Positions 1,657-36,760 of a stretch of 64,000 nt of DNA are shown here, in pieces (the stretch's first letter is position 1; each line of letters starts with the position of its first letter). This DNA is from a virus (Duplodnaviria; Caudoviricetes), in IMG/VR virus record IMGVR_UViG_3300028888_000057. One strand, written 5' to 3'. The position numbers were made by a program, and so were the translations under genes. The notes beneath the pieces were generated by a model. The model searched no databases. It saw only the letters and a program-made list of their open reading frames with translations, and had not been told where the DNA came from.

Positions 1657-1931
1657 AGACAAAAGGTAGGTATAAAAGCCTGCTTTTTTATTTCAACATA
1701 CGTGAACAGAAGAGCTCTGAGTAATCAGAGTTCTTTTTTATATATCAACATGCATGAAGTACTCGCTCATGCATTACAACCGCAAAATCCCAGCGGTATG
1801 AGTGTGGCAATTGGGTGCCGTGCTATACGAAACATAGCTCAAGGCCGAGCAGGCGCATCTTAGCTCAAAGATGCAAATGTTTATCAATTCTATTTTGTTG
1901 TCTCTTAAGTGAGACAGAAAGGAAGGAAACC

Positions 1932-4900
1932 ATGTCTAAGATTAATACTTCTATTGCTGTCGTCTCCGCTCTGATCAACGAAGGGAAAATTCCGACGAAG
2001 GTGGCAAATGCTTTAGCGATTTCTCTGTCTGTAACCGAATTAAGACAGATCGTTGCCAACAATGCTCTTGACCGTCTCATGAAGATTGAAGGCATCGGTG
2101 AAAAGAGAGCTGCAACCATTATTAAGGTGCTTACTGGAAAGATCCCTCAGCGGCTTTCCGAGAGCCGCACCGGCAAGAAGATCAGCACTCGGGAACCGAG
2201 CGTAGGGTTCTCCCTTCGTTCGTTCGCTTCCAAGACCGTAATGAAGGAATATGTTCCGTACATCGAAGCGATAAATAATATCGAACTGTACAAAGAAACC
2301 GAAAACGGTCGTATGCTCGATGACGAAGCATTGCTTGATGCCCGTCAGGCATATGCTGAACTCAAGAAGTTTTCGAACGAACTGGACGAAAAGAACTTAC
2401 CGTTCTCTCTGTTCCAGAACGAAGGAACTATCTCACGGATGAGCCGCAGCATCGGCTCTGACATTTTCGGGATCGATTACACCTCAAAGAAACCGACAAC
2501 CGCATGGATTACTGTCGAACATGGAATCCAAGAGCTGATCAATTTCAATTGGCACGTTTTCGGCAACACGAAAACCGAAGCCGAAGCTGAAAAGAATCGC
2601 CTGCAGCAGGAAATCGAACACAGACTCGGTAACGCCGGTGTTCGGATGTATGTTGGCAACACGAGCGTAGAAAGCTCAATGATCCACTACGGTGGATTCG
2701 CAGCTTCAGCATCTCACCAGAAAGACGAGAAGTTGGTTATGGCTGACGCAAAACTTATGAAGCTTCATGAAGAAGCAATCTGGTTCACTATGAAGATGGC
2801 CGAAGTATTTGATCTTGAGATCAACGGAGCGGCAATTTGGAAAATGAGAGCAAACCTTCTTAGACCGATCCGTTGCGGTCTCAAAATCAAAGGTGGTCGC
2901 CAGCTTACGCTGAATGACATCGAAATTAAGGAACCGATCATTGTTAATCGTGTCATCAAGAACGCTCGAAAGATTGGTGAACTGAACGAAGAGACGGGTG
3001 AAATCTTCGAAGACGGCAAAATGGCTGTTGAAAAGACCTTGGCCGACGGCACTCTTATGTCTACCGTGGAACTCGAACAGTGGGGTCAGACCACTTCTTA
3101 TGGCATCAAGGGATGCTCGGGAGACGGAGCCGCTCCGATCAAGTACGCAGCGAAACTGGAAGGGAAAGAAGTTCCTTTGATGAAACCCATCCTTATGGAT
3201 GGGGGATGCTGGAAATTCGATAAAGTCAGATGTTCCTGGGAAGAATTCGTTCGTAGAGCGAACAAGCTCGCCGAACGGTATCCGAGTTTGAATAAACTCT
3301 GGCTGCTCCGCGAAGGAGACGAGCTGGAAGACGACGTTAAAGTTCGTCGACTGACTCGGAGTCTTATTCAGCAGTGGATCCATCTCGACGCTCGCGACAT
3401 CCGTATGATCACTAAGAAGAGCCGCAAGAGCCTGAACAAAATGAAGACCTTAAAGGGTGCTATCAACATGATGGCCGAGACTGGACGGGAAGAAAAGAGC
3501 CAGTTGGGTAAGGTGTTTGAGAAAGCACCGTGGCTGGTACTTAATCCTGAAGTTCAGAGATATCTCGAAACAAGGTTTGTCCGGAAACAGAGGGAAGCTG
3601 CGGCATGTAAGTTTAAGACGACTGGGTTTTATCCTTACATTCAGGAAGACTTTGTTGCCATCGCCCAAATTTGGGTGTTTGGTGCCGATTCCAACCGTAT
3701 GGATCTGGGCGTGTTGAAGGCAGGCGAAATGAGCGTCGCTGATGTGGCACCCAAGCAGAAAATGCTGGCAGTCCGGTTTCCTGCGAACTATCAGACCGCT
3801 GCCGTACGTATCAATGTGCCTTGTCGCGAAGCTTTCAGTTCTTGCAGCAACATCTGCATGATCTCAATCTACGACGATATCCTGATCCGTCAGGATGGTG
3901 ACGTAGATGGTGACGAAATGGCCATCATTCTGGATGAAATCGCAATAGCTGCGACTGAAAGAATGTACGAAGAGTTCAATCCTCCGGTTGTCGTGTTCGC
4001 ACACGGAGGAAAGGCTCCGAAGAAAAAGATCAGCAATCGGGCTGGTCTTATTGAAACTATGTATAATGACTTGTGGAAGGCCAAGAAGTTTGATGGCGTT
4101 GGAAAGTATGCCAATCTGGCAACTCTTTGTTGCCACCTTGCTTCTCTGGCTTATGCCCATGGAGATATGGACGAAGTTAAGATGCGCCTTGTTCAGATGT
4201 CTCTGGCATCGACTGGTGCTATCTTAGCGATTGACCAAGTGAAAGGCAACGCCGTCAGCGACGAGCTGATCGAGCGACTGGAACAGATCAGCAAGTCTGT
4301 CAGGAACCAGTGTCTGAACATGATGCCGTTCACTCAGCAGTTCGTCAAAGGCCTGAAGGCTGATGAAGTTCTGCCTGAAAGTGATGCTTTGTGTGATCAG
4401 ATGGCTGGTCTGATCATTCGCGATACCAACGACAAGGAAACCAACGGTTATAAACTTGAAGTTGGTAACGCGCAGTGGAACGCAAAGGAAGCGAAGCGGG
4501 CTATGCTCGACTTTGGCCTGAGAACGACTTCACTCCGGAACTCTCCTGTTCCGAAGAGCATTCTCGATACACTGGCGGATAACTGGTTCAACGACAAGAA
4601 CAATGCTGATCAGGAGACCTTCCGTCTGATCAAGGCTGGTCAGCCCGTTCAGATGAAGGATCTGGTACTTCTCATGTGGAGAAATGCATGTGCGTTGGAA
4701 TTCCGTATGACCGGGGATAATCTGACCGCCAAGCGGGAAGAGTATCTGAAGATTGTACGTGAAATGCTGTATACACAGGCAACCTCTGCTAAATGGGTTG
4801 GTAATGACGGGCACGTATTCACCGATGCCGAAAAGAAAGCTTCTGTCGTGAACGTTCTGGTGTATGATGCACTTAACATGAGCGGCAAAGGCAATGGTAT

Positions 4901-5180
4901 CGATGATGACAAGAAGGGATCCTATGCAATCTTCGTACTGAAGGTGTTTGCGAAGGAGATCCTCTGGTGTCTCGAACGGAACCATGCAGATGCCAACCTG
5001 TTCAACATCAAGTATGCGACTGCTACCGATCTGGAGATCGAAGAGTCCGCAGAAGCGATTGAGAACATTCTGGCCGACGGGTGGGGCAACATTGACGAAG
5101 ATCAGGAAGTGTGGTTCTCCGATGAGGATAACTACACAGACTATGATCTTGGCGACAATGACTATGTAGAAGAATGTTAA
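1932..5180 (+). CDS. single-subunit RNA polymerase, RdRP/YonO-like (copy 1), with N-terminal helix-hairpin-helix
   Basis: VRFP followed by RQDGDVDGDE (DxDGD metal-binding loop); AIDQVK motif; LMKIEGIGEKRA HhH; AGGAAGGA RBS before ATG 1932. Confidence 0.75.
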   Translation: MSKINTSIAVVSALINEGKIPTKVANALAISLSVTELRQIVANNALDRLMKIEGIGEKRAATIIKVLTGKIPQRLSESRTGKKISTREPSVGFSLRSFASKTVMKEYVPYIEAINNIELYKETENGRMLDDEALLDARQAYAELKKFSNELDEKNLPFSLFQNEGTISRMSRSIGSDIFGIDYTSKKPTTAWITVEHGIQELINFNWHVFGNTKTEAEAEKNRLQQEIEHRLGNAGVRMYVGNTSVESSMIHYGGFAASASHQKDEKLVMADAKLMKLHEEAIWFTMKMAEVFDLEINGAAIWKMRANLLRPIRCGLKIKGGRQLTLNDIEIKEPIIVNRVIKNARKIGELNEETGEIFEDGKMAVEKTLADGTLMSTVELEQWGQTTSYGIKGCSGDGAAPIKYAAKLEGKEVPLMKPILMDGGCWKFDKVRCSWEEFVRRANKLAERYPSLNKLWLLREGDELEDDVKVRRLTRSLIQQWIHLDARDIRMITKKSRKSLNKMKTLKGAINMMAETGREEKSQLGKVFEKAPWLVLNPEVQRYLETRFVRKQREAAACKFKTTGFYPYIQEDFVAIAQIWVFGADSNRMDLGVLKAGEMSVADVAPKQKMLAVRFPANYQTAAVRINVPCREAFSSCSNICMISIYDDILIRQDGDVDGDEMAIILDEIAIAATERMYEEFNPPVVVFAHGGKAPKKKISNRAGLIETMYNDLWKAKKFDGVGKYANLATLCCHLASLAYAHGDMDEVKMRLVQMSLASTGAILAIDQVKGNAVSDELIERLEQISKSVRNQCLNMMPFTQQFVKGLKADEVLPESDALCDQMAGLIIRDTNDKETNGYKLEVGNAQWNAKEAKRAMLDFGLRTTSLRNSPVPKSILDTLADNWFNDKNNADQETFRLIKAGQPVQMKDLVLLMWRNACALEFRMTGDNLTAKREEYLKIVREMLYTQATSAKWVGNDGHVFTDAEKKASVVNVLVYDALNMSGKGNGIDDDKKGSYAIFVLKVFAKEILWCLERNHADANLFNIKYATATDLEIEESAEAIENILADGWGNIDEDQEVWFSDEDNYTDYDLGDNDYVEEC

Positions 5181-11886: not shown

Positions 11887-12110
11887 ATTTGAAGTTTCCA
11901 AATATAGATATGCCGGTCAAGCTTACTTATCCGGATAATATTTATTTTGCTCCTCAGCTTGGTAACACTGTTCATGTGATTGATTCGGCTAGAAACCTTC
12001 TGGGTGATTATGTCGTGGCTGAGTTATCGAATGGCGGCTATACTCTACGGAAGGTCAGTGACTGCAAGGTGGATGAAAAAGAAATTTTAGAGATTCTGCA
12101 GGAGAATTAA
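11877..12110 (+). CDS. hypothetical protein
   Basis: Overlapping start, GGAGG RBS. Confidence 0.55.
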   Translation: MPVNLKFPNIDMPVKLTYPDNIYFAPQLGNTVHVIDSARNLLGDYVVAELSNGGYTLRKVSDCKVDEKEILEILQEN

Positions 12111-12650
12111 TATCTATATAATATATATTATTATAATAATAAGAAATAATATTATTAATAATCTATAATAATAAATAATCTGAATAAATATAATTAAATA
12201 AATTAAGATTATTATTCTTATTAATGAATATTATTACTCTTATAGATTATACATTATTTAGATATTACTCTCTTAAGATAATTATATTCCTTTAAATTAA
12301 TTATATTATCTTTAAGATGTATCTCTTTAAGATTATTAATATCTCTTAGAGATTATACTTTCTTTAGAGATTATTATCTTAAGGATAAATGAATCCTTTA
12401 TAGGGATTATTCTTATTTAGAGATAGATACTATTAGAAGAGAATAATTCTTTAGATTAAAACTACACATCTTTTTACTAATTCTTAATATATTTTTACTA
12501 CACACATATTCTTTAGATATTATACACATTACTATTTATATTAATAATACTAACCATATTAATAACAATATCTCTAAAAGATAATATAATCCTTTATTAA
12601 TATAATATAAAGAATAATATTTATAATATAAAGATAAATACTACACTTTG
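12111..12650. other. second extremely AT-rich non-coding tract
   Basis: No ORF; begins with an imperfect inverted copy of 10682-10727. Confidence 0.45.
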
Positions 12651-12688
12651 ATAACTGGCGGGGAGAGAACTGGCCGGGGAGAATTGAA

Positions 12689-18267: not shown

Positions 18268-18717
18268 ATGGATCAGGAAGCCAAAGCTGATAATGGTAAA
18301 GCACGACTGACATTGGTTCCGAGAAAGATTCTTTATGACGTTGCAAGAATCAGAGAGTTCGGAACAAAGAAGTATAAAGATCCTGATAACTGGAAAAAAG
18401 TAGAAGCTTGGAGATATAAGGACGCGCTGATGCGTCATCTCTGTGCCTATCTTGATGATCCGAAGAGTGTCGATGAAGAGAGCGGCTTGCCTCATTTGTG
18501 GCATGCGGCTTGTAATATGGCTTTCCTTTGTGAGATGGAAGACTGGGAAGAAAAGAAAGAAGAAGTTGTTGAAAAACCGAAGTGTAAAGATTGCAAGTAT
18601 TGTTGCGAAGTGAATAGAGGAAATAAAGTTTATATTTGTAAAGAAGTAAGTAAATTTGGCAAGACAATCTTCAATATTGAAGCGCCGATTTGCGAAAAAG
18701 GAACAAGAAAAGAATAA
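18268..18717 (+). CDS. dATP/dGTP diphosphohydrolase domain (DUF5664) protein
   Basis: KADNGKARLTLVP..FGTKKY..NWKK..ALMRHL..DEESGLPHLWHAACN. Confidence 0.85.
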   Translation: MDQEAKADNGKARLTLVPRKILYDVARIREFGTKKYKDPDNWKKVEAWRYKDALMRHLCAYLDDPKSVDEESGLPHLWHAACNMAFLCEMEDWEEKKEEVVEKPKCKDCKYCCEVNRGNKVYICKEVSKFGKTIFNIEAPICEKGTRKE

Positions 18718-18738: not shown

Positions 18739-19278
18739 ATGGCTTTAACAAAGATTGATCTGGAAACGATGGATAATCGTAACTTTCACTACAAGGCTCA
18801 ATGGAAACCTGATGTGGAAGAGTACTACAAGAAAGCGGATGCCCAACTTGTAGCCGGAGAAATCTATTCACTGGGAGACAACCCTTCGACGAAGGAAGTT
18901 CTCGAAATGGCCCGAAGTGAAGATAGAGAAATCCATAAGCTGATTGAGTGGGATGACAGTATCGCAGCCGAAAAGCATCGGATGTATCAGGTCAGAAAGA
19001 TTATGGGTAATATCCAGATCACTGAGATCAAGCTGAAAAAAAAAGCGCCTCAGAAGATTAAGGTTCCGCTGAGAATGTTCTACCATCTGAAAGGCGAAGA
19101 AGGATATCACGCCACTCCGACTATCATCGAAAACAAAGACTTAAATGACAAACTTCTGGCAACAGCCAAGGCAGAACTGGCTGCGTTTGTCACTAAGTAT
19201 TCGATCCTCACAGAGCTTCAGCCTGTTTTCGATGCCATCAGGAGCCTGGATAATCCGCCTGATAATCCGGCGGCCTAA
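18739..19278 (+). CDS. putative partner of the RAMP-like protein
   Basis: AAGGAGG RBS; IHKLIEWDDSIAAEKHR..QVR.I motif; directly precedes the pentamer/hairpin array. Confidence 0.7.
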   Translation: MALTKIDLETMDNRNFHYKAQWKPDVEEYYKKADAQLVAGEIYSLGDNPSTKEVLEMARSEDREIHKLIEWDDSIAAEKHRMYQVRKIMGNIQITEIKLKKKAPQKIKVPLRMFYHLKGEEGYHATPTIIENKDLNDKLLATAKAELAAFVTKYSILTELQPVFDAIRSLDNPPDNPAA

Positions 19279-19284
19279 ATCAGA

Positions 19285-19700
19285 GTGCGGTTAGTACAAT
19301 AAGGGACTTGTGAGTCCCTACAACAAGAGTACACATCATATTTCAACACATCATAATGCAGGACATCACATTACAAGTCTCTTGTTGTGCTAATCGCACA
19401 AAAACAGCTTACGATATTATATAAAAGCATTAATAATAACAGTTTATTAAACTTTAATATATCATAACATATCAAAACTCAAGACATTACAATATACAAC
19501 TTCGTTGACTCTCATAAGGGCATGTATTATGTCCTACTACAATATAGAGCAATATAGGAAAAACAAGGACAAAACAACACAGTACAACACATGCTCTTAT
19601 TAGAGTCAACGGAGCATTATTCAACAGTTCTGTTGACAATAACAGAACAAATCAATAAAACACTAAAAATTACACAATCAAACAGTAAAGAACATCATTT
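19285..19700 (+). repeat. pentamer (ACA-like + NN) array with hairpin units 1 (19285-19399) and 2 (19500-19614)
   Basis: 26-27-nt arms pairing with G.U wobbles; 5-nt periodicity in loops and between units. Confidence 0.85.
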
Positions 19701-19735
19701 ATTTTTTGAAAATTATTTTTAAAGGAGAAAATATT

Positions 19736-20404
19736 ATGAAGAAGAACAATAACGAATTTGAACTGCTGAATATCGACGCCAAGGTTAAACATATGGAAGT
19801 CTACATTGAAGGAGACGGAGATCTCGTTCTGAACAAGATGAACGCCCGTACTTTCCGTGAACTGATGAATCCAGATCGTAAAGCAGCGAAAGAACAGCCG
19901 AACGTATGGGAAGACATCATCACTTCCATCCATTGGCGTGATCCTCTGGGAGTAAAGGACACTTATCAGTGTTGTGATGAAAACTTTATGAATAAGCTCC
20001 TGAAGGAAAATGCTCCGTGTATTACCCAGTTCGGTCTCATGCAGAGTCTGAAGCAGGCCGTTGTACGCAATGAGATCGATACCTATAGCACCAAGTTTGA
20101 CAATGCGGTGAATATCATCGCGGTTAATGGACTTATTCCGGTCGAAATCAGCGGCTGGTCTTTGGACAGTCGTCTGATGAGTCCGAAGCGTGGAGCCCCG
20201 ATTTCCGTGCATATCAACCATTTCCATAACTGGAAAGCACATTTTCATGTAGCTTATATGGATAACGTGTACAGTCGGGATCAGATTCTGAACGTGATTA
20301 ACCTGGCTGGATTTGGTCTGGGCATTGGCTCCGGCCGGACTTCTGGTTATGGTCGTTATCATATCACGGCTGTTGAATCCTATACGGATACTGAAGCCGC
20401 TTAA
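19736..20404 (+). CDS. RAMP/Cas7-like RNA-binding protein
   Basis: N-terminal strand VYIEGDGDLVLN; C-terminal glycine-rich loop LAGFGLGIGSGRTSGYGRY; AAGGAG RBS. Confidence 0.7.
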   Translation: MKKNNNEFELLNIDAKVKHMEVYIEGDGDLVLNKMNARTFRELMNPDRKAAKEQPNVWEDIITSIHWRDPLGVKDTYQCCDENFMNKLLKENAPCITQFGLMQSLKQAVVRNEIDTYSTKFDNAVNIIAVNGLIPVEISGWSLDSRLMSPKRGAPISVHINHFHNWKAHFHVAYMDNVYSRDQILNVINLAGFGLGIGSGRTSGYGRYHITAVESYTDTEAA

Positions 20405-20422
20405 TTCTCTGTGTACCAATCC

Positions 20423-20930
20423 GATGTGGTTGGTACCATAGAGAGCTTGTAAGCTCTTAGATCAAGATAGAGTAAATTAGAGCACGATAGAATAGGACAT
20501 AAAAGAACAGCACATAACAAGCTTTCTATGGTGCTAATCACATCAACATATCAGTGCGGTTGGCATTGTTGGAGACTTGTTCTCCGTAATACAAAACTCT
20601 GTATAACAGAAGAATCAACAACAGAACAGCACAGTACAAGTCTTCAATAGTGCCAACGGCACAAGCACACTATAAGTAAGCATAATACAGGACAGCGAAA
20701 CTACAGAACAATGCAGGAGTTTACAAAACAGAAAGTGCCAACGTTGCAGTTGGCACGTTAGAGAGCTTGTTTGGCTCTTAATGCAAAATAGCTTAGAGCA
20801 GAATAAGGTACGATACTACAAAATAGATAACGACACAACAGAACAAGCTTTCTAATGTGCTAATTGCACAAAATACAGAACATCAAACTAAAGGACAAAA
20901 GAAAACAGATAAGTACAGCACAGCATAATA
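20423..20930 (+). repeat. pentamer array with hairpin units 3 (20423-20544), 4 (20554-20662) and 5 (20745-20868)
   Basis: 26-28-bp stems with G.U pairs, shared CTTGT/ACAAG inner ends, 11-13 in-register pentamers per loop. Confidence 0.88.
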
Positions 20931-20944
20931 TTTCTGGAGGAAAT

Positions 20945-21235
20945 ATGTTTAAAGTTGGAGATATTGTTCAGCTTAAAACACAGTCAGAACTTAATGCTGA
21001 ACACATAAGATGTGATACAGGTTCAGCTTCGCATAAGTACGGTGGATCCATTTGTGAAATTATAGAGATAAAAGGCAATGGTTATAAATTAAGTCCAATA
21101 GAAAACGTTGACAATTGCCCCGATAGAGAAGTTCACGATATTTCATATTGGTACTGGTCAAATAAGAACTTGAAACCATACAATACTATTAAAGTTAATG
21201 AAATGGAAATGTTGACAATATTATCGGAGGCATAA
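20945..21235 (+). CDS. small SH3/KOW-like paralog
   Basis: MFKVGDIVQLKT..GSA.HKYGGS.C; GGAGG RBS. Confidence 0.7.
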   Translation: MFKVGDIVQLKTQSELNAEHIRCDTGSASHKYGGSICEIIEIKGNGYKLSPIENVDNCPDREVHDISYWYWSNKNLKPYNTIKVNEMEMLTILSEA

Positions 21236-21519
21236 TGTTTAATCCGGGAGACTTAGTTCAGATTAAAACAAGAGAAGAAGTATTAGAAGAAGGACGGCTG
21301 TGTTCCAAAGGTAGCGCGCTTCATAAATATGGCGGATCAATATGTAAGGTTAGAGATGGAGAAATATTTTATCGACTAGAAAGTGTTGATGTTGTTGATA
21401 ATTTACCAGATATACATCTCTCAACTATAGAAGATTGGGACTGGAGCAATCGCAACCTGAAACTGGCTTATAATCCCGAAATAAACACTAATGAGCTCAT
21501 GAATTTACTGGAGGCATAA
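21235..21519 (+). CDS. small SH3/KOW-like paralog
   Basis: GDLVQIKT..GSALHKYGGSIC; TAATG coupling. Confidence 0.7.
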   Translation: MFNPGDLVQIKTREEVLEEGRLCSKGSALHKYGGSICKVRDGEIFYRLESVDVVDNLPDIHLSTIEDWDWSNRNLKLAYNPEINTNELMNLLEA

Positions 21520-21815
21520 TGGAATACAAAGTTGGTGAACTTGTTCAGATTAAAACAAGAGACGAAATGATAGCTGAAGGATATTTTTGTAGCGAAGGAA
21601 GCGCATTACATAAATATGGAGGATCCACTTGCAGAGTTCAGCGTATCGACGGTATGGTTTGCACACTTAACCCTGTTAACATTATAGATAACTTGCCTCA
21701 TCAATACGAAAAGCCGATTGAAAAATGGAAATGGCATAGTTCAAGTCTTAAATATCCGGAAAACGAAATAAAGATTGATATAGATACAATGGTTGATATT
21801 TTATCGGAGGCATAA
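21519..21815 (+). CDS. small SH3/KOW-like paralog
   Basis: VGELVQIKT..GSALHKYGGS; TAATG coupling. Confidence 0.7.
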   Translation: MEYKVGELVQIKTRDEMIAEGYFCSEGSALHKYGGSTCRVQRIDGMVCTLNPVNIIDNLPHQYEKPIEKWKWHSSSLKYPENEIKIDIDTMVDILSEA

Positions 21816-22099
21816 TGAAATACGCAATTGGAGACAAAGTAGAAGTAATCGGCCCACCAAATTGGGACGGTAAAGACGATTATCGAATTTATTGTAATAA
21901 TAATCGAGAAGATTACGCTTTTGGAATTCATATGAGAGATAGAATCGGATTTGTTAGCGAAATAGAATCTTTATATGCCTATAAAGATAATTGTTATCAT
22001 TTGCGTAATGATACAGATGCTTATTACTATCATGCAGATTGGCTGGCTCCTGTTGAAACAATTAATGTTGAAGGACTTGAAGATCTTTTGGAGGACTAA
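21815..22099 (+). CDS. small SH3/KOW-like paralog
   Basis: IGDKV..GPPNW..YYHADWLAP. Confidence 0.7.
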   Translation: MKYAIGDKVEVIGPPNWDGKDDYRIYCNNNREDYAFGIHMRDRIGFVSEIESLYAYKDNCYHLRNDTDAYYYHADWLAPVETINVEGLEDLLED

Positions 22100-22329
22100 T
22101 GTTTTACGTAGGGGATCAGGTTAGGCTAGTTGGTTATCAAGATAACATCGACCTGATGGAGCAAAATCTTGGAAGGGTATTCACAATCACAGACAAATAC
22201 GAAAAGAATCGTGATAAGCCAGCATACTATCTGAATGATGGTTATAGATTTATTTATCGGGAAGATTGGCTTGAACCTGTTGAACAAACAATTAATACCG
22301 ATGAATTAGAGGACTTGTTAGGAGAATAG
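22099..22329 (+). CDS. small SH3/KOW-like paralog
   Basis: VGDQV..YREDWLEP. Confidence 0.7.
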   Translation: MFYVGDQVRLVGYQDNIDLMEQNLGRVFTITDKYEKNRDKPAYYLNDGYRFIYREDWLEPVEQTINTDELEDLLGE

Positions 22330-22330
22330 T

Positions 22331-22612
22331 ATGTATAAAATTGGAGATGAAGTACTCCTCAAGAAACCTGATTGGTTTCCAGAAAATAAAGTATGTATAG
22401 AGCAAGGTACATCCGGAGAAGAAACTGTATGTTTTATTGATTTAATGCTTTATGCTGTAGGACAACAAACAAGAATTAAACAAGTATATTTCGATAAAAA
22501 AGATTGTTACCTTCTTGAAAACATCGGTAACTATTGGCACGAAAACTGGCTGGAACCTGTTAATCAAGTTAATGTTGATGAAGATACATTAACAGAGCTA
22601 CTTGAGGTGTAA
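22331..22612 (+). CDS. small SH3/KOW-like paralog
   Basis: IGDEV..YWHENWLEP. Confidence 0.7.
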   Translation: MYKIGDEVLLKKPDWFPENKVCIEQGTSGEETVCFIDLMLYAVGQQTRIKQVYFDKKDCYLLENIGNYWHENWLEPVNQVNVDEDTLTELLEV

Positions 22613-31131: not shown

Positions 31132-31412
31132 TTATCATAATGAAAACGTAGAAATACTCTTTAGATGTTATTTAAAGGAACGATTGGCTGGATGAGTAGG
31201 TCGCTGCGGGCAGGTCCTGAAGGCGCCCAGTGGAGTGTCGATCCGCTGGCAGAGAGGCTGGACGGAGGTGGCAGGTCAGCGCGATCCGACTGAAAACCGG
31301 GAAAGTGGAGATTCAAATCCGGAGAAGACGACCAATTGGATCTCGAACGCGTCCAGCGGGCCCTGGAGGAGCACCTCGTGCGGCAGCGGATTTTCCTTTT
31401 AGATTATGATAA
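31132..31412 (+). ncRNA. retron-like (msr-msd-like) ncRNA
   Basis: Terminal inverted repeat TTATCATAAT/ATTATGATAA plus four nested stems; GC-rich island directly upstream of the RT. Confidence 0.6.
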
Positions 31413-31422
31413 GGATAATAAT

Positions 31423-32547
31423 ATGATTTACATAACAAGAAAAAGAATTGCAATACCCAAACAAGTGACTTTGGAAGACATCTTGTTGGACCGAGAAATT
31501 CCGGAGTTAAAAGATATAGGAACAAGCACACTGACAAGAGTTTATCCTGAAACTCCAGATGAGCTTAAACATTGTTTCAATATTGATTTATTAATCAAAT
31601 GGTTGAATGACTTCAATGAACGACATGCTGAGCTATTCCAAAGAGATAGAAACAGTATGTATTATCAGTTCAAAATACCAAAGAAAACAGGAGGATTCAG
31701 AGAAATTGATGCTCCTGTCAAAGAGTTGCAGAGCGCGCTAACAGAAGTGGTTAATTTTCTAAAGAATCAATGCAATATTCTGTATCATACGGCGGCATTT
31801 GCCTATATCGAAGAGAGAAGCACGGTAGATTGTGTCAGAAGACATCAGAAAAACAATAGCAATTGGTTCCTGAAACTGGATATTAAGAGCTTCTTTCCAA
31901 GCACTACGCTGAAGTATCTGATGCACATCAGCAGCATGACGTATCCACTGTCGGAAATCTGCAAGGTTCCAGAGGGAAAGTCAGCGTTGGAGAGGACATT
32001 CAGTCTTGCTTTTAAAGATGGCAAATTGCCACAGGGAACAACATTAAGTCCGTTGATTTCGAACATTGTAATGTTGCCAATAGACTTTAAGGTCTTCAAT
32101 ACATTGGCAGCAAGAAAGATTGTATATACTCGTTACTGCGATGATATGATTATCTCGGCTCAGGAGAAGTTTCCGTGGCAGGAAGTTGTAAAGATTGTCA
32201 AAGATGCTTTTACAGAAATGGGAGCACCATATCGGATCAATGACGAAAAGACAAGGTTTGGATCAAAGAAAGGAAGTAACTTTAATCTCGGATTAATGCT
32301 GAATGGAAACAATGATATCACTGTAGGTTATAAGGCGAAGAAACGCTATAAAGCTGCGCTGTGTTCATTTATCCAGGATACAATCCATGGAAATCGTTGG
32401 CCGCTGGAAGATGTAACGCATCTGAACGGGCTGACAAGTTACTATCGCTATCTGGAGAAAGAATATTTTGATCAGATATGGAAAAGAGCAAGCGAAAAGT
32501 GGAACGTAGATATTGGTGCTTTGTTTAAATCATATCTATCAACGTAA
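31423..32547 (+). CDS. reverse transcriptase, retron-like
   Basis: IPKKTGGFREIDAP, AFAY..CVRRH, KLDIKSFFPS, LPQG..LSPLISN, YTRYCDD; AAGGA RBS before ATG 31423. Confidence 0.92.
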   Translation: MIYITRKRIAIPKQVTLEDILLDREIPELKDIGTSTLTRVYPETPDELKHCFNIDLLIKWLNDFNERHAELFQRDRNSMYYQFKIPKKTGGFREIDAPVKELQSALTEVVNFLKNQCNILYHTAAFAYIEERSTVDCVRRHQKNNSNWFLKLDIKSFFPSTTLKYLMHISSMTYPLSEICKVPEGKSALERTFSLAFKDGKLPQGTTLSPLISNIVMLPIDFKVFNTLAARKIVYTRYCDDMIISAQEKFPWQEVVKIVKDAFTEMGAPYRINDEKTRFGSKKGSNFNLGLMLNGNNDITVGYKAKKRYKAALCSFIQDTIHGNRWPLEDVTHLNGLTSYYRYLEKEYFDQIWKRASEKWNVDIGALFKSYLST

Positions 32548-32906: not shown

Positions 32907-34475
32907 GTGTCTTCGGTGAAGACATACCTGCAAGATCAGGTAAGGTTGGTAACGCTGAGCAGTAACGATTTATTTACAGATGATGAATATAGTCAATATG
33001 TAAAGATCGTGCAGCTAGGCAACACGTACAACGAAAGGATCGGAAAAGGAGAAGACAAGGATACTCTGAAGCCAATTCTCCGGGAAAAAGAAAAGCTCAA
33101 AGAAAAATTGTCAACAACTATTCAGAAAAGAGGGGAGAATCCTCGGGTTGTTAATCTGAACATGGTTGTTCATCATTCCAAAGACTCTCCATTTCCATTT
33201 CCGAAAGGTATTACGTGGAAAAATCTCAAAATCACACGCAGGATTGCAGAATTTTCATGTGAACTGACAAGAGCAATGGGTCTCAATAATCTGGACTGTA
33301 CGCTTGATCTGATCGTGATTAAATGGAAAGACTTGAATCTTCTGAAGCAGCTGGTACTGTATGGATTCTATATGCCGATTCTCCATGGAGACGAAGTTGA
33401 AATGAGACACTATCAGTTTCTGACTGCATCAGCCGGACAGTTGAGACGCGACAAAACAATCTTCATTTCGGATGAGATGTGGAACAAGATTCACAGACGC
33501 ATCGAGTGTGGAATGAACTGGGAAAGAATCAATGTTCATGGAGGTATCGTCGCAAATAAACTGCTGGCTTATATTGCGTTGGCTAACAGTGCTACGGATG
33601 TCTGGACGGACTTTGATATTGACCGGTGTATTGTCATAGACGATTTCGAGGCTGAAGTAACTGATCGAATGATGTATATTAAGGAAGATTATACATATGA
33701 GATCGGTAAACGAACGGTAATGATCAACCACACTGATGGATGTGGAATGATGCTGCCAACAGTCTCGAAACTGAATTTTATGACAAGACTGCCATTCATC
33801 AAAGGATTGCTTGTGAGCTTTGATTATATTAAATTCTGCAAAGTCAATAATGTTCCTCCGATTATCAAGGATATTTATGGCAAAGAACATGACCTGATTA
33901 AAGAAAATATACAGATAATCTTTACGAAGAGTATGTTCAAAGCCTATAAGTATTTTGAAAGCTTCGAAGAGTACAAAGCAGAATTTAAAGCATGTGGCGC
34001 ACAGGCCGGAATTACCAATTATGAAGAAGAGTATATTCCGGATGCGACATTGAATTATCAATTCATTCAAACACTAGTAAATTTTACTGATGAGGAGATA
34101 CAACAATTCATCAAAAATGATCATGATAAGATTGAAAAGCTTGGAACCAACAAAGATTCAATGTTGAACACGTTGGGAGCCAGAAAGGAATCTGACAATC
34201 CTTATAAAGCGGCGCTGGCATACTATCCGGAACTGTTGAGAGAAGCGTATAGCAAAGAAACGATTCGAGCGATCAGGAAGAGTATGATGCTGGATGCAAA
34301 GTCTGGAAAGATTCACTGCGAAAACAAGAGATTGTTTGCAGTACCTGATCTCTACGCCGCCTGTGAGCGGTGGTTTATGGGGATCGAAGAACCAGAAGGA
34401 TTGTTAAGGGGAAATGAAATAGCTTGTCTGCCGTATAGAAGGCATGATAAAGCAGATGTTCTAAGAAGTCCGCAT
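32907..34475 (+). CDS. YonO-like single-subunit RNA polymerase (copy 2), exon 1
   Basis: TASAGQLR, HTDGCGM, RLPFIKG, LNYQFIQTL; ends ..LRSPH at the intron. Confidence 0.85.
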
Positions 34476-35512
34476 TAACATAGGTGCCTTTACACAGTAA
34501 TGTGTATCGAAAAATGTGGTTAACCTGTAAATACAGGGTGTCGCTGAAAAGCGGCTAACGGAGAACGAACTAAACGATAGAGTTTGGAGGTGAGAAAATG
34601 AGCAAGCTTAAAGATTTAACTGGACGGATGTTTGGATTTCTTTACGTTCAAAGAAGAATGCCTAATTATGTTCAAGAAAACGGAAGAACAAGAACGAGAT
34701 GGCTAACAACGTGTCTCTTGTGTGGAAAAGCTTATGTTGCAGATGGTAGTCATTTGCTGCACGGTGATATTATTAGTTGTGGCTGTTTTAAGAACATGAA
34801 AAGCGCATTAAGAGGTCAAGAATATACAGGCGTCCAGAAACCAATTCGAGATTTGACCGGCATGAAATTTGGATATCTTAGAGTAATTGAAAGATGCGAA
34901 AATTTTGGGCCAAAAACAGCATGGTTATGTTTGTGTGAGAATTGTGGCAGTTATACAAAGGTTCGCTCGAATCATCTCCTTCGAGGATTAGTATCCAGTG
35001 ATGGCTGTATAAAGTCTGTAAGAGAAGAGCAAATGGCAAAATGGTTTAATGAACACAAAATTCCATTTGAAAGAGAATATACTTTTCCAGACTTATTAGG
35101 CGAAGGTGGAAGTAATCTAAGATTCGATTTTGGTTTAATAGACAAGAAAAATAATTTAATTTGTTTAGTTGAATATCAAGGAGAACAACATGGTTTAGAT
35201 AAAACTGGAGAGTTTGGCAGACAACAAAGAGAACAAACTGACAAACAAAAAATTGATTATTGTTTAATAAACCATCTTGCTTTTCAAAGTGTTTGGTACA
35301 ATAGAGATTTTGAAGAGCAAATGCAAGAAATCGAAAAGTTCTATCGCAAGTCAACTGCCGTGCCAAACCGGAAAACCGGAAGGTGTATCGACTATCCCGA
35401 GAGGGAGTAGGGTTCAAGTGAAACTCTTGAATTCGAAACGCCACACAACCCGTAAGGGCTGATGACATAGTCAACTCCGCTACGAAATATCGGGAAACCG
35501 ACGGTACGAAGG
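34476..35512 (+). mobile_element. group I intron in RNAP 2
   Basis: Exon ends in U with P1 GCAT/GTGC (U.G); P7 elements CGACTA..CATAGTC; terminal G at 35512; splicing restores RSPH-LA-MEH in frame. Confidence 0.85.
34598..35410 (+). CDS. intron-encoded homing endonuclease (DLTG..FG.L.V Zn repeats plus a PD-(D/E)xK/Vsr-like nuclease domain)
   Basis: Two DLTGxxFGxLxV..CxxCG repeats; LRFDF..VEYQGEQH. Confidence 0.75.
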   Translation: MSKLKDLTGRMFGFLYVQRRMPNYVQENGRTRTRWLTTCLLCGKAYVADGSHLLHGDIISCGCFKNMKSALRGQEYTGVQKPIRDLTGMKFGYLRVIERCENFGPKTAWLCLCENCGSYTKVRSNHLLRGLVSSDGCIKSVREEQMAKWFNEHKIPFEREYTFPDLLGEGGSNLRFDFGLIDKKNNLICLVEYQGEQHGLDKTGEFGRQQREQTDKQKIDYCLINHLAFQSVWYNRDFEEQMQEIEKFYRKSTAVPNRKTGRCIDYPERE

Positions 35513-36760
35513 TTAGCAATGGAACATTTTATCTGCCCAATTGTTCATGATCAGAAAATATATGATTGGTTTTATACAAACGGAGTCGTAACTTCTTGTC
35601 ACAGCATGGTATCGAGGGTGCTCCAGTTCGATGTCGATGGAGATCAACTTAACGTAATTGTTGATCCGTTATTCATTAAGGTTGCTGAAAAGAATATCAA
35701 AGAGTTTGACGTGGTTCCATTATTCTATGACGCAGAGAAAGGTGATGCTACTCTGATGTCAAAGGAGGCACAGTTTGAAGGTCTGAAGATTGCCCATGAA
35801 TATTCAGGTATCGGAGAAATATCAAACATGCTGACAAGACTATGGAATCGAAATACTCAGGACAGGATTGCTGCCGCATTTCTTTGCAGATTTAACAACG
35901 CTGTGATCGATGCAGCAAAGATTGCCAAGATCAATCACTATAATCAGTATCCTGAAATTGAAAAACGTATCAACAAAGCTATAGGAGGCAAGAACTCACG
36001 TATGCCTGCTTGGTTCAAGTACTCTAAGAATCAGAGGAAAAATGGCAATGAACACAAGCAGTATGCAAAACCCAATAACTCAACAATGAACCGAATATCT
36101 TCTTACTTTGATGATATTGGAAAGATCAACATGAATTTTGCTGGGGTGCCGTCATTCAACTGGCAAATGCTTCTCAGCGGGCCGTGTACAAATACATGGC
36201 CGGAAATTCCAATGCTGTTCTGTGAGATGGATAATGTTAATATTTCTAACGTAATCGAATCTCATGACATTCCTTATGCATCTGAGAAACAGAAGATCAA
36301 TGGTTATTCCATGATGGCAGAAATGATCAAGGATGAAATCATTGATCAGTTTGGTTCGTTAGAAACTGCATATCCGTATGTAGTAAAACATCTGTTTGCA
36401 GGAGAAGGTATGAATAAAGCCGCTCACAAACAGATGTTCTGGCGCGTGTTTGGCAATATTGCGCTGGAAAACTTAAAGAAAAATGTTAACAACTGTGATG
36501 TTTGTCCGGATTGTAAGATGAGAATCCCATCGTGGGTGAAGGATCATTATTGTGTGAAGAATACATCCGGCTTCTATGAATGTATAGATTGCCATAAGAT
36601 GTGTGAAAGAACTTCTTCATCGCAATATCGATGCGCAGATTGTCAAAATAAATATCGACTAACACAAAGAAAACTGGCTCAGAGAAACCGTCGAAACCAA
36701 TTGAAAGAGGATGAAGAGAAACGTATTGTTTCCTGGCTATCGTCCTTCAGGGAGATATAA
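35513..36760 (+). CDS. YonO-like RNA polymerase, exon 2
   Basis: LQFDVDGDQ catalytic loop, N..IDAAK, C-terminal Zn ribbons. Confidence 0.85.
   Translation, partial: LAMEHFICPIVHDQKIYDWFYTNGVVTSCHSMVSRVLQFDVDGDQLNVIVDPLFIKVAEKNIKEFDVVPLFYDAEKGDATLMSKEAQFEGLKIAHEYSGIGEISNMLTRLWNRNTQDRIAAAFLCRFNNAVIDAAKIAKINHYNQYPEIEKRINKAIGGKNSRMPAWFKYSKNQRKNGNEHKQYAKPNNSTMNRISSYFDDIGKINMNFAGVPSFNWQMLLSGPCTNTWPEIPMLFCEMDNVNISNVIESHDIPYASEKQKINGYSMMAEMIKDEIIDQFGSLETAYPYVVKHLFAGEGMNKAAHKQMFWRVFGNIALENLKKNVNNCDVCPDCKMRIPSWVKDHYCVKNTSGFYECIDCHKMCERTSSSQYRCADCQNKYRLTQRKLAQRNRRNQLKEDEEKRIVSWLSSFREI

Follow-up and report, generated by a model that had tools for sequence, protein, structure and literature searches.

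Organization of the locus

We analyzed a 64,000-nt stretch of DNA from a tailed virus (IMG/VR record IMGVR_UViG_3300028888_000057; Duplodnaviria, Caudoviricetes), referred to below as the window, which represents a phage replication region. Positions 18739-20930 hold a candidate VIPR-type module, consisting of a gene for a Vipr-like RAMP protein, a gene for a putative accessory protein upstream of it, and non-coding DNA with a 5-nt repeat on both sides of the RAMP gene. VIPR was described in 2026, and recognition of its GGY triplet has been solved structurally. The type II VIPR of Escherichia phage SUSP1 (bioRxiv 10.64898/2026.04.26.720920, 10.64898/2026.04.26.720927 and 10.64898/2026.10.15.759431) serves as the reference throughout. 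The two genes in the window are:

18739-19278, + strand: 179-residue accessory (vap-like) gene, matching phrog_15946 (E = 1.9e-14)
19736-20404, + strand: Vipr-like RAMP protein gene, 222 residues, with G-loop GFGLGIGSGRTSGYGRY

Pentamer arrays on both sides of the Vipr-like gene

The original prediction had described a 5-nt periodicity on both sides of gene 19736-20404, and autocorrelation bore this out: both non-coding flanks give peaks at lags 5, 10, 15 and 20, with values of 0.35-0.39 vs. 0.24-0.28 at neighboring lags. Lag-5 and Fourier statistics were also taken in 100-nt segments across all 64 kb. Ranking them by lag-5 excess, and likewise by the second harmonic (period 2.5), placed nearly all 40 top segments in 19271-19660 and 20411-20900, confirming that the flanks carry the strongest 5-nt periodicity in the window. 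Plain period-5 Fourier power did not single out the array region within the window, because the A at unit positions 1 and 3 moves power to period 2.5.

A cyclic five-state hidden Markov model (HMM) resolved the flanks into nine in-register tracts of about 7-19 pentamers each, with the consensus A-Y-A-N-N, where NN is a variable dinucleotide. The rest of the window gave just four short matches to the same model. The HMM also recovered, in register, the run of 19 pentamers that had originally been noted at 19404-19498. Five of the tracts are enclosed by long stems, and the other four lie between stems:

19333-19372, + strand: AYA/NN tract, stem-enclosed, 8 units (HMM)
19404-19498, + strand: AYA/NN tract, free (inter-hairpin), 19 units, in register throughout
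19539-19588, + strand: AYA/NN tract, stem-enclosed, 10 units
19642-19696, + strand: AYA/NN tract, free, 11 units
20462-20516, + strand: AYA/NN tract, stem-enclosed, 11 units
20591-20635, + strand: AYA/NN tract, stem-enclosed, 9 units
20667-20733, + strand: AYA/NN tract, free, ~13 units, with one register slip at 20697
20783-20842, + strand: AYA/NN tract, stem-enclosed, 12 units
20875-20929, + strand: AYA/NN tract, free, 11 units; putative polymerase-directed guide

The same repeat unit is found in related loci. In 72 distinct arrays, the three constant positions are A (80%), Y (82%) and A (93%), followed by near-uniform N, N. G accounts for only 7%, 2% and 2% of the three constant positions on the transcribed strand. 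The family comprises 293 distinct guides with a median of 11 units. As had been predicted, there is no sign of CRISPR: Tandem Repeats Finder revealed no CRISPR-like array in the window, no Cas family was found among the large window open reading frames (ORFs) that were scanned, and the related loci likewise contain neither a repeat-spacer array nor other cas genes (Cas10/Cas8, Cas5, Cas6, Cas1/2). An Rfam search returned no family, and no hammerhead ribozyme was found between the guides.

The protein encoded by 19736-20404

The C-terminal end of the 222-residue product reads ...LAGFGLGIGSGRTSGYGRYH..., and is thus glycine-rich, as originally noted. The match of the protein to the Pfam RAMPs family is below threshold (17.9 bits vs. 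22.1). An AlphaFold2 model, built with 34 homologs, has a predicted local distance difference test (pLDDT) score of 83, and its elements follow in the order β1, helical insert, α1, β-hairpin, α2, G-loop, β4. Foldseek searches with this model ranked the Cmr4 and Csm3 subunits first, while an exhaustive search with VIA-align gave Z scores of up to 9.5, with ≈45 of the top 50 matches being of the Cas5/6/7 type. The model therefore supports the Cas7-type RAMP fold that had been proposed for this stand-alone protein.

The only PHROG match of the protein was to phrog_4652 (E = 1e-6), over the C-terminal 53 residues. SUSP1 Vipr, whose locus was found in phage SUSP1 through its GGY repeats, matches the same group with E = 1.4e-96, and the sole match of the family profile among PDB sequences was the SUSP1 Vipr chain 36pp_D. 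When the profile was searched against 1.8 billion cluster representatives, 581 proteins were retrieved. Many of the distant full-length matches are also recognized by SUSP1 Vipr (21-42 bits), and intermediates between the two have family-profile E-values of 1e-8 to 1e-12. Because these distant matches are shared with SUSP1 Vipr, the 222-residue protein falls in the Vipr superfamily; judged by sequence, it is a remote yet genuine member. The suspected kinship to VIPR is thus borne out through phrog_4652 and the intermediates.

In the published SUSP1 Vipr structure, the G-loop residues D177 and W178 contact the two guanines. In our alignment, the window family has an invariant S199 and G200 where SUSP1 Vipr has D177 and W178, and R179 is retained as R201. 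A family that reads AYA and carries matched changes at the guanine-contacting residues offers a handle on how Vipr reads its repeat.

A conserved three-part module

More than 2,270 metagenome protein clusters (90% identity) resemble the 222-residue protein, and 221 IMG/VR stretches encode a relative of it. A tblastn search of 50,697 GenBank phage records with the protein gave no match, and none of its top 120 homologs had NCBI as its source. The vipr-like gene is directly preceded by a period-5 tract in 80 of 81 related loci, and a homolog of the 179-residue protein is encoded upstream of the array on the same strand, also in 80 of 81. The other neighbors of the window gene are never conserved among these loci. 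The partner gene, the array and the vipr-like gene form a conserved module in 80 of the 81 related viral loci, which agrees with the co-occurrence that had been anticipated. An AlphaFold2 model of the 179-residue partner has a pLDDT of 80, and fold searches with it returned generic helical-hairpin matches alone (Z ≤ 5.2), which are uninformative. One homolog of the partner is present in UniProt and comes from a GenBank gut phage.

Repeat codes other than AYA/NN accompany more distant Vipr-like proteins, as seen in three relatives, denoted L092, L093 and L095:

L092, 1880-2000 and 2740-2960: ATT/NN tracts; G-loop GIHTQRKNGYGRF
L093, 400-826 and 1495-1590: DCA/NN tracts; G-loop GIGTCRP
L095, 1905-1990: AGC/NN tract; G-loop GVGDWRP

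In L092 and L093, there are tracts enclosed by long stems, too. The DCA triplet of L093 is the reverse complement of a published triplet, TGH.

Stems bracketing alternate guides

Five imperfect inverted repeats in the window, with arms of 27-30 nt that are 83-86% complementary, enclose every second tract. The resulting hairpin units are predicted to fold at -43 to -50 kcal/mol:

19285-19399, + strand: hairpin unit 1, 27-bp stem round 19333-19372; minimum free energy -46.6 kcal/mol
19500-19614, + strand: hairpin unit 2, 29-bp stem round 19539-19588
20423-20544, + strand: hairpin unit 3, 28-bp stem round 20462-20516
20554-20662, + strand: hairpin unit 4, 30-bp stem round 20591-20635
20745-20868, + strand: hairpin unit 5, 27-bp stem round 20783-20842
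19302-19320, 19519-19537, 20443-20459, 20571-20585 and 20763-20781: short alternative hairpins of 5-8 bp

Long stems (23-34 bp) with unrelated arm sequences are also present in other family loci, and in most family arrays enclosed and free tracts alternate. The arms share just 28% identity between loci, and the stems covary: true partner arms pair at -40 kcal/mol vs. -17.6 kcal/mol for mismatched partners. Of 198 units, 163 have a stem that is more stable as plus-strand than as minus-strand RNA (p = 2e-25), and G-U pairs make up 12%, which argues that the array RNA comes from the gene-sense strand. In the SUSP1 clade, each guide is capped at its 3' end by a conserved structure, a pseudoknot. 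The family arrays showed no tail sequence in common; in them, covarying stems bracket alternate guides instead. This hairpin-bracketed arrangement suggests a third way of vrRNA maturation, beside ribozymes and staggered arrays.

The short hairpins listed above are an alternative fold of the distal end of the 5' arm, directly before each enclosed tract. They leave the enclosed tract with two similar short segments as flanks. The short hairpin recurs in other loci (-7.8 vs. -4.4 kcal/mol for shuffled sequence).

The variable dinucleotides as a putative gapped guide

Over 3,529 units, the NN frequencies follow those at codon positions 1-2 of window genes in the sense direction (r = 0.89). For all other frames and strands, r was ≤ 0.31, and for the reverse complement it was -0.12. 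Skips of 0-3 bases between successive pairs were tested on the family loci, and a skip of one base alone was truly above shuffled guides. A signal at a skip of three was an artefact of unmasked duplicate (sister) arrays.

Matches between family members follow the same rule. The guide at 1349-1403 of locus L078 matches positions 1370-1401 of a sibling phage, L072, at 22 of 22 positions, at the PIWIDDSESI motif of an ATPase gene; the L078 allele of this gene matches the L078 guide at only 16 of 22, six read positions having diverged. Another family guide agrees at 18 of 20 positions with foreign vipr genes, where it spells their G-loop, YAGFGLGIG. From the matched sequences, the targets appear to be read two bases at a time, each NN pair being followed by one skipped base at the wobble position of the codon. 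The idea that NN acts as a discontinuous guide held up: the NN positions behave like a guide with gaps, and real targets match it. Passing over the wobble base, the guide would read codon positions 1-2 and tolerate synonymous change. Some sibling phages have an extra guide upstream of the partner gene, aimed at the C-terminal motif of the ATPase. Relatives carry the ATPase gene where these siblings have the extra guide, and in a distant relative this gene matches Pfam AAA_23.

Targets of the window guides

The full guide at 20875-20929, with its 11 units, has sense, in-frame matches at 22 of 22 NN positions in 27 IMG/VR contigs, every one of them at the motif ESLGKKDVAAM. These matches comprise 20 distinct DNA strings that differ at skipped bases alone. 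Roughly estimated, with 22 fixed bases and the size of the collection assumed, ≈0.01 such matches would arise by chance. The first 10 units matched 34 genome contigs, nearly all from Clostridia, against a chance expectation of ≈1, roughly estimated from 20 fixed bases and 596 billion bases. In 33 of these 34, the match is at one in-frame site of a ≈665-residue protein encoded in Clostridia genomes, which is a family-A DNA polymerase (phrog_17, E = 1.9e-138). Based on these sequence matches, the guide is securely assigned to the gene for family-A DNA polymerase carried by other phages or prophages. One gapped guide would thereby cover many synonymous variants of a rival phage gene, and the assignment points to Clostridia as the arena of the conflict.

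Assignments for other tracts are weaker. The NN series of tract 19539-19588 reads as a peptide like SNF2 motif I, and has an in-frame match to LDMGLGKTVT (17 of 20 positions, sense orientation) in two of the polymerase-bearing phage contigs. SNF2 motif I is only suggestive as its target, because shuffled guides reach 18 of 20. For tract 19642-19696, the first 10 units have one exact in-frame match in a 340-residue ORF of an IMG/VR contig; this ORF, matched in frame at 20 of 22 positions, is a tentative target. A 10-unit pattern from tract 20783-20842 was found in metagenomes in one Siphovirus Gp157 gene and in a chromosomal GFO/IDH/MocA oxidoreductase gene that is represented by 43 nearly identical copies. 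We treated both as chance, since these are just two independent matches in a very large collection. In ≈0.5 Mb around polymerase genes, the other window guides gave nothing above shuffled controls.

Proposed mode of action

The locus is very probably a phage VIPR-type module for RNA-guided DNA recognition, made up of an accessory gene, a RAMP protein of the Vipr family and nine guide tracts. By analogy with the characterized systems, it most likely serves to silence competing phages. From published VIPR work, we infer that the Vipr-like protein binds RNA and forms filaments and that the array is transcribed; silencing and the role of the stems are also inferred. The nine tracts would be transcribed from the gene-sense strand, and one Vipr-like protomer would bind per pentamer, as in SUSP1 Vipr, sequestering the constant AYA triplet and presenting the NN pair. 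The concatenated NN pairs would then base-pair with a DNA strand, every third target base being skipped. Since the guides read like the coding strand, their pairing partner in rival genes would be the template strand, and the outcome would be transcriptional silencing of rival phages in a Clostridia host. The stems around every second guide most likely set the guide boundaries: a double-strand RNase (host RNase III, for example) could cleave them, or they might cap the protein filament.

Several observations weigh against this interpretation. The constant triplet AYA is neither GGY nor one of the alternatives that the first VIPR paper names, NNNGG, YNNNG and NNNNG. The direct similarity of the 222-residue protein to SUSP1 Vipr is limited to the C-terminal 50 residues, with an hhalign probability of 28%. 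The 179-residue partner has no recognizable fold and no BLASTP similarity to SUSP1 vap1. Finally, a statistically secure target is available for just one of the nine window guides, and exact searches of IMG/VR with 1-nt-skip patterns gave no match for tracts 19539-19588, 20783-20842 (12 and 10 units) and 20462-20516.

Comparison with described VIPR systems

The window locus and the SUSP1 type II VIPR (Vipr, vap1 and GGY/NN vrRNAs) are both phage-borne, without cas genes or a CRISPR array. Like the window protein, SUSP1 Vipr is a single-RRM RAMP of ≈200 residues with a G-loop before the last strand and a match to phrog_4652. In both systems, the gene has sense-strand guides of ≈9-16 pentamers on either side, each pentamer combining three constant bases with two variable ones, and targets are read as NN plus a skipped base on the wobble position. 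The targets of SUSP1 VIPR are likewise genes of competing mobile elements, other vipr genes included. The two differ in the constant triplet, GGY in SUSP1 and AYA in the window family, and correspondingly in the two G-loop residues described above. The accessory gene in the window precedes the array and, by sequence, is no relative of vap1. In place of a 3' pseudoknot tail, the window family has a stem of 23-34 bp round every second guide, and whereas SUSP1 VIPR has targets on both strands, the guides of the window family are strongly coding-sense.

The non-canonical arrays of the Evo-PIN survey (10.64898/2026.10.21.760802) are similar in having a 5-nt period, a triplet other than GGY, ≈10 units and an adjoining Vipr-like fold. 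The text of that survey does not name AYA/NN as one of its motifs, nor does it describe a strand, a target rule, natural targets or a stem architecture.

VIPR having already been described, the suggestion that the locus represents a wholly new non-CRISPR system was too strong. It may still be a VIPR type of its own. We consider it possible, short of an even chance, that the AYA/NN family is an undescribed type, with its own repeat code set by the swap of D/E-W for S-G in the G-loop, stem-based array maturation (probably by host RNase III) that releases alternating "loop" and "linker" guides, and a strict coding-sense polarity. Such a type would provide a second, orthogonal programmable code for gapped DNA recognition, and its polarity would hint that guides are chosen or acquired with respect to transcription. 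The AYA/NN family could yield an orthogonal guide scaffold.

A comparable, and similarly tentative, standing is given to the reading that nothing here is new, and that the locus is an ordinary member of an already catalogued VIPR type, drawn either from the seven types with a related consensus or from the 21 non-canonical clusters of the Evo-PIN survey. The first VIPR paper allows for GGY/NN "or a related consensus" (bioRxiv 10.64898/2026.04.26.720920), although the related motifs given in its text all retain G. GAC, CAC, WGT and TGH /NN arrays are reported beside Vipr-like folds in the text of the Evo-PIN survey, and TGH corresponds to the DCA/NN motif of relative L093 on the opposite strand. 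The partner homolog from a GenBank gut phage also means that the family may be reachable from NCBI NR. On the other hand, AYA/NN (TRT/NN on the other strand) is not named in the texts of the VIPR papers, motif-listing figures aside, and these texts do not mention guide-enclosing stems or RNase III. The negative results for the top 120 homologs and for the GenBank phage records also speak against a type already catalogued.

Relationship to Cas7 and other alternatives

The window protein shares with the Cas7 subunits of Class 1 CRISPR systems (Csm3, Cmr4, Cas7) an RRM core, a glycine-rich loop and a thumb hairpin (Z = 7-9.5). These subunits polymerize along their guide with a constant nucleotide step, flipping out bases at regular intervals, as the window protein would by analogy. 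The step is 6 nt, with one base withdrawn, in Cas7, whereas it would be 5 nt, with three withdrawn, in the window family. Unlike the Class 1 effectors, the window system has no Cas6, Cas5, large or small subunit, or adaptation genes.

This likeness raises the alternative of an RNA-targeting RAMP of the type III Cas7 kind, which the pentamer RNAs would direct to phage transcripts, instead of DNA, for binding or cleavage. Among solved structures, the nearest in fold are indeed the type III subunits Csm3 and Cmr4, and these bind RNA targets. However, the NN polarity is that of the coding strand rather than its reverse complement, all secure targets are in sense, and the plus strand is the strand that folds as RNA. 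A guide with the sequence of an mRNA is unable to pair with that mRNA, and the polarity therefore argues against mRNA targeting. In addition, characterized VIPR binds double-stranded DNA. We regard RNA targeting as very unlikely.

It is still harder to credit that the tracts act as DNA rather than RNA, for instance as protein-binding iterons, bent DNA or recombination sites, that the RAMP-like gene beside them is incidental and that there is no guide RNA. The tracts are A-rich and periodic, and a preprint notes A-tract periodicity elsewhere, though with a period of 10 nt. Against this, the G-U asymmetry of the covarying stems reflects selection on one RNA strand, the NN series is codon-like and gives exact matches to foreign genes under a 1-nt skip, and the protein belongs to an RNA-binding family whose members use such repeats. 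A CRISPR type III remnant was rejected; no repeat-spacer array was found in the window, and no Cas family among the large ORFs that were scanned.

Other features of the window

Directly upstream of the VIPR-type module, gene 18268-18717 encodes an N-terminal dATP/dGTP diphosphohydrolase domain (E = 1.4e-26), followed by a Cys-rich tail. This gene is not conserved beside the module in relatives. Directly downstream of the array, 20945-22612 contains seven tandem, small paralogous ORFs of about 76-98 residues, which have a motif like GD.V..K in common and acidic C-termini. ORF 31336-32547 (403 residues) matches phrog_2825, a phage "polymerase" (E = 1.9e-42), and a reverse-transcriptase PHROG (E = 1.8e-14). 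ORFs 1815-5180, 32907-34478 and 35519-36760 match different parts of phrog_8308, a group of unknown function, and the latter two look like a split or duplicated copy. An AT-rich cluster of tandem repeats with periods of 10-39 nt at 12100-12680 may be an origin or a regulatory region.

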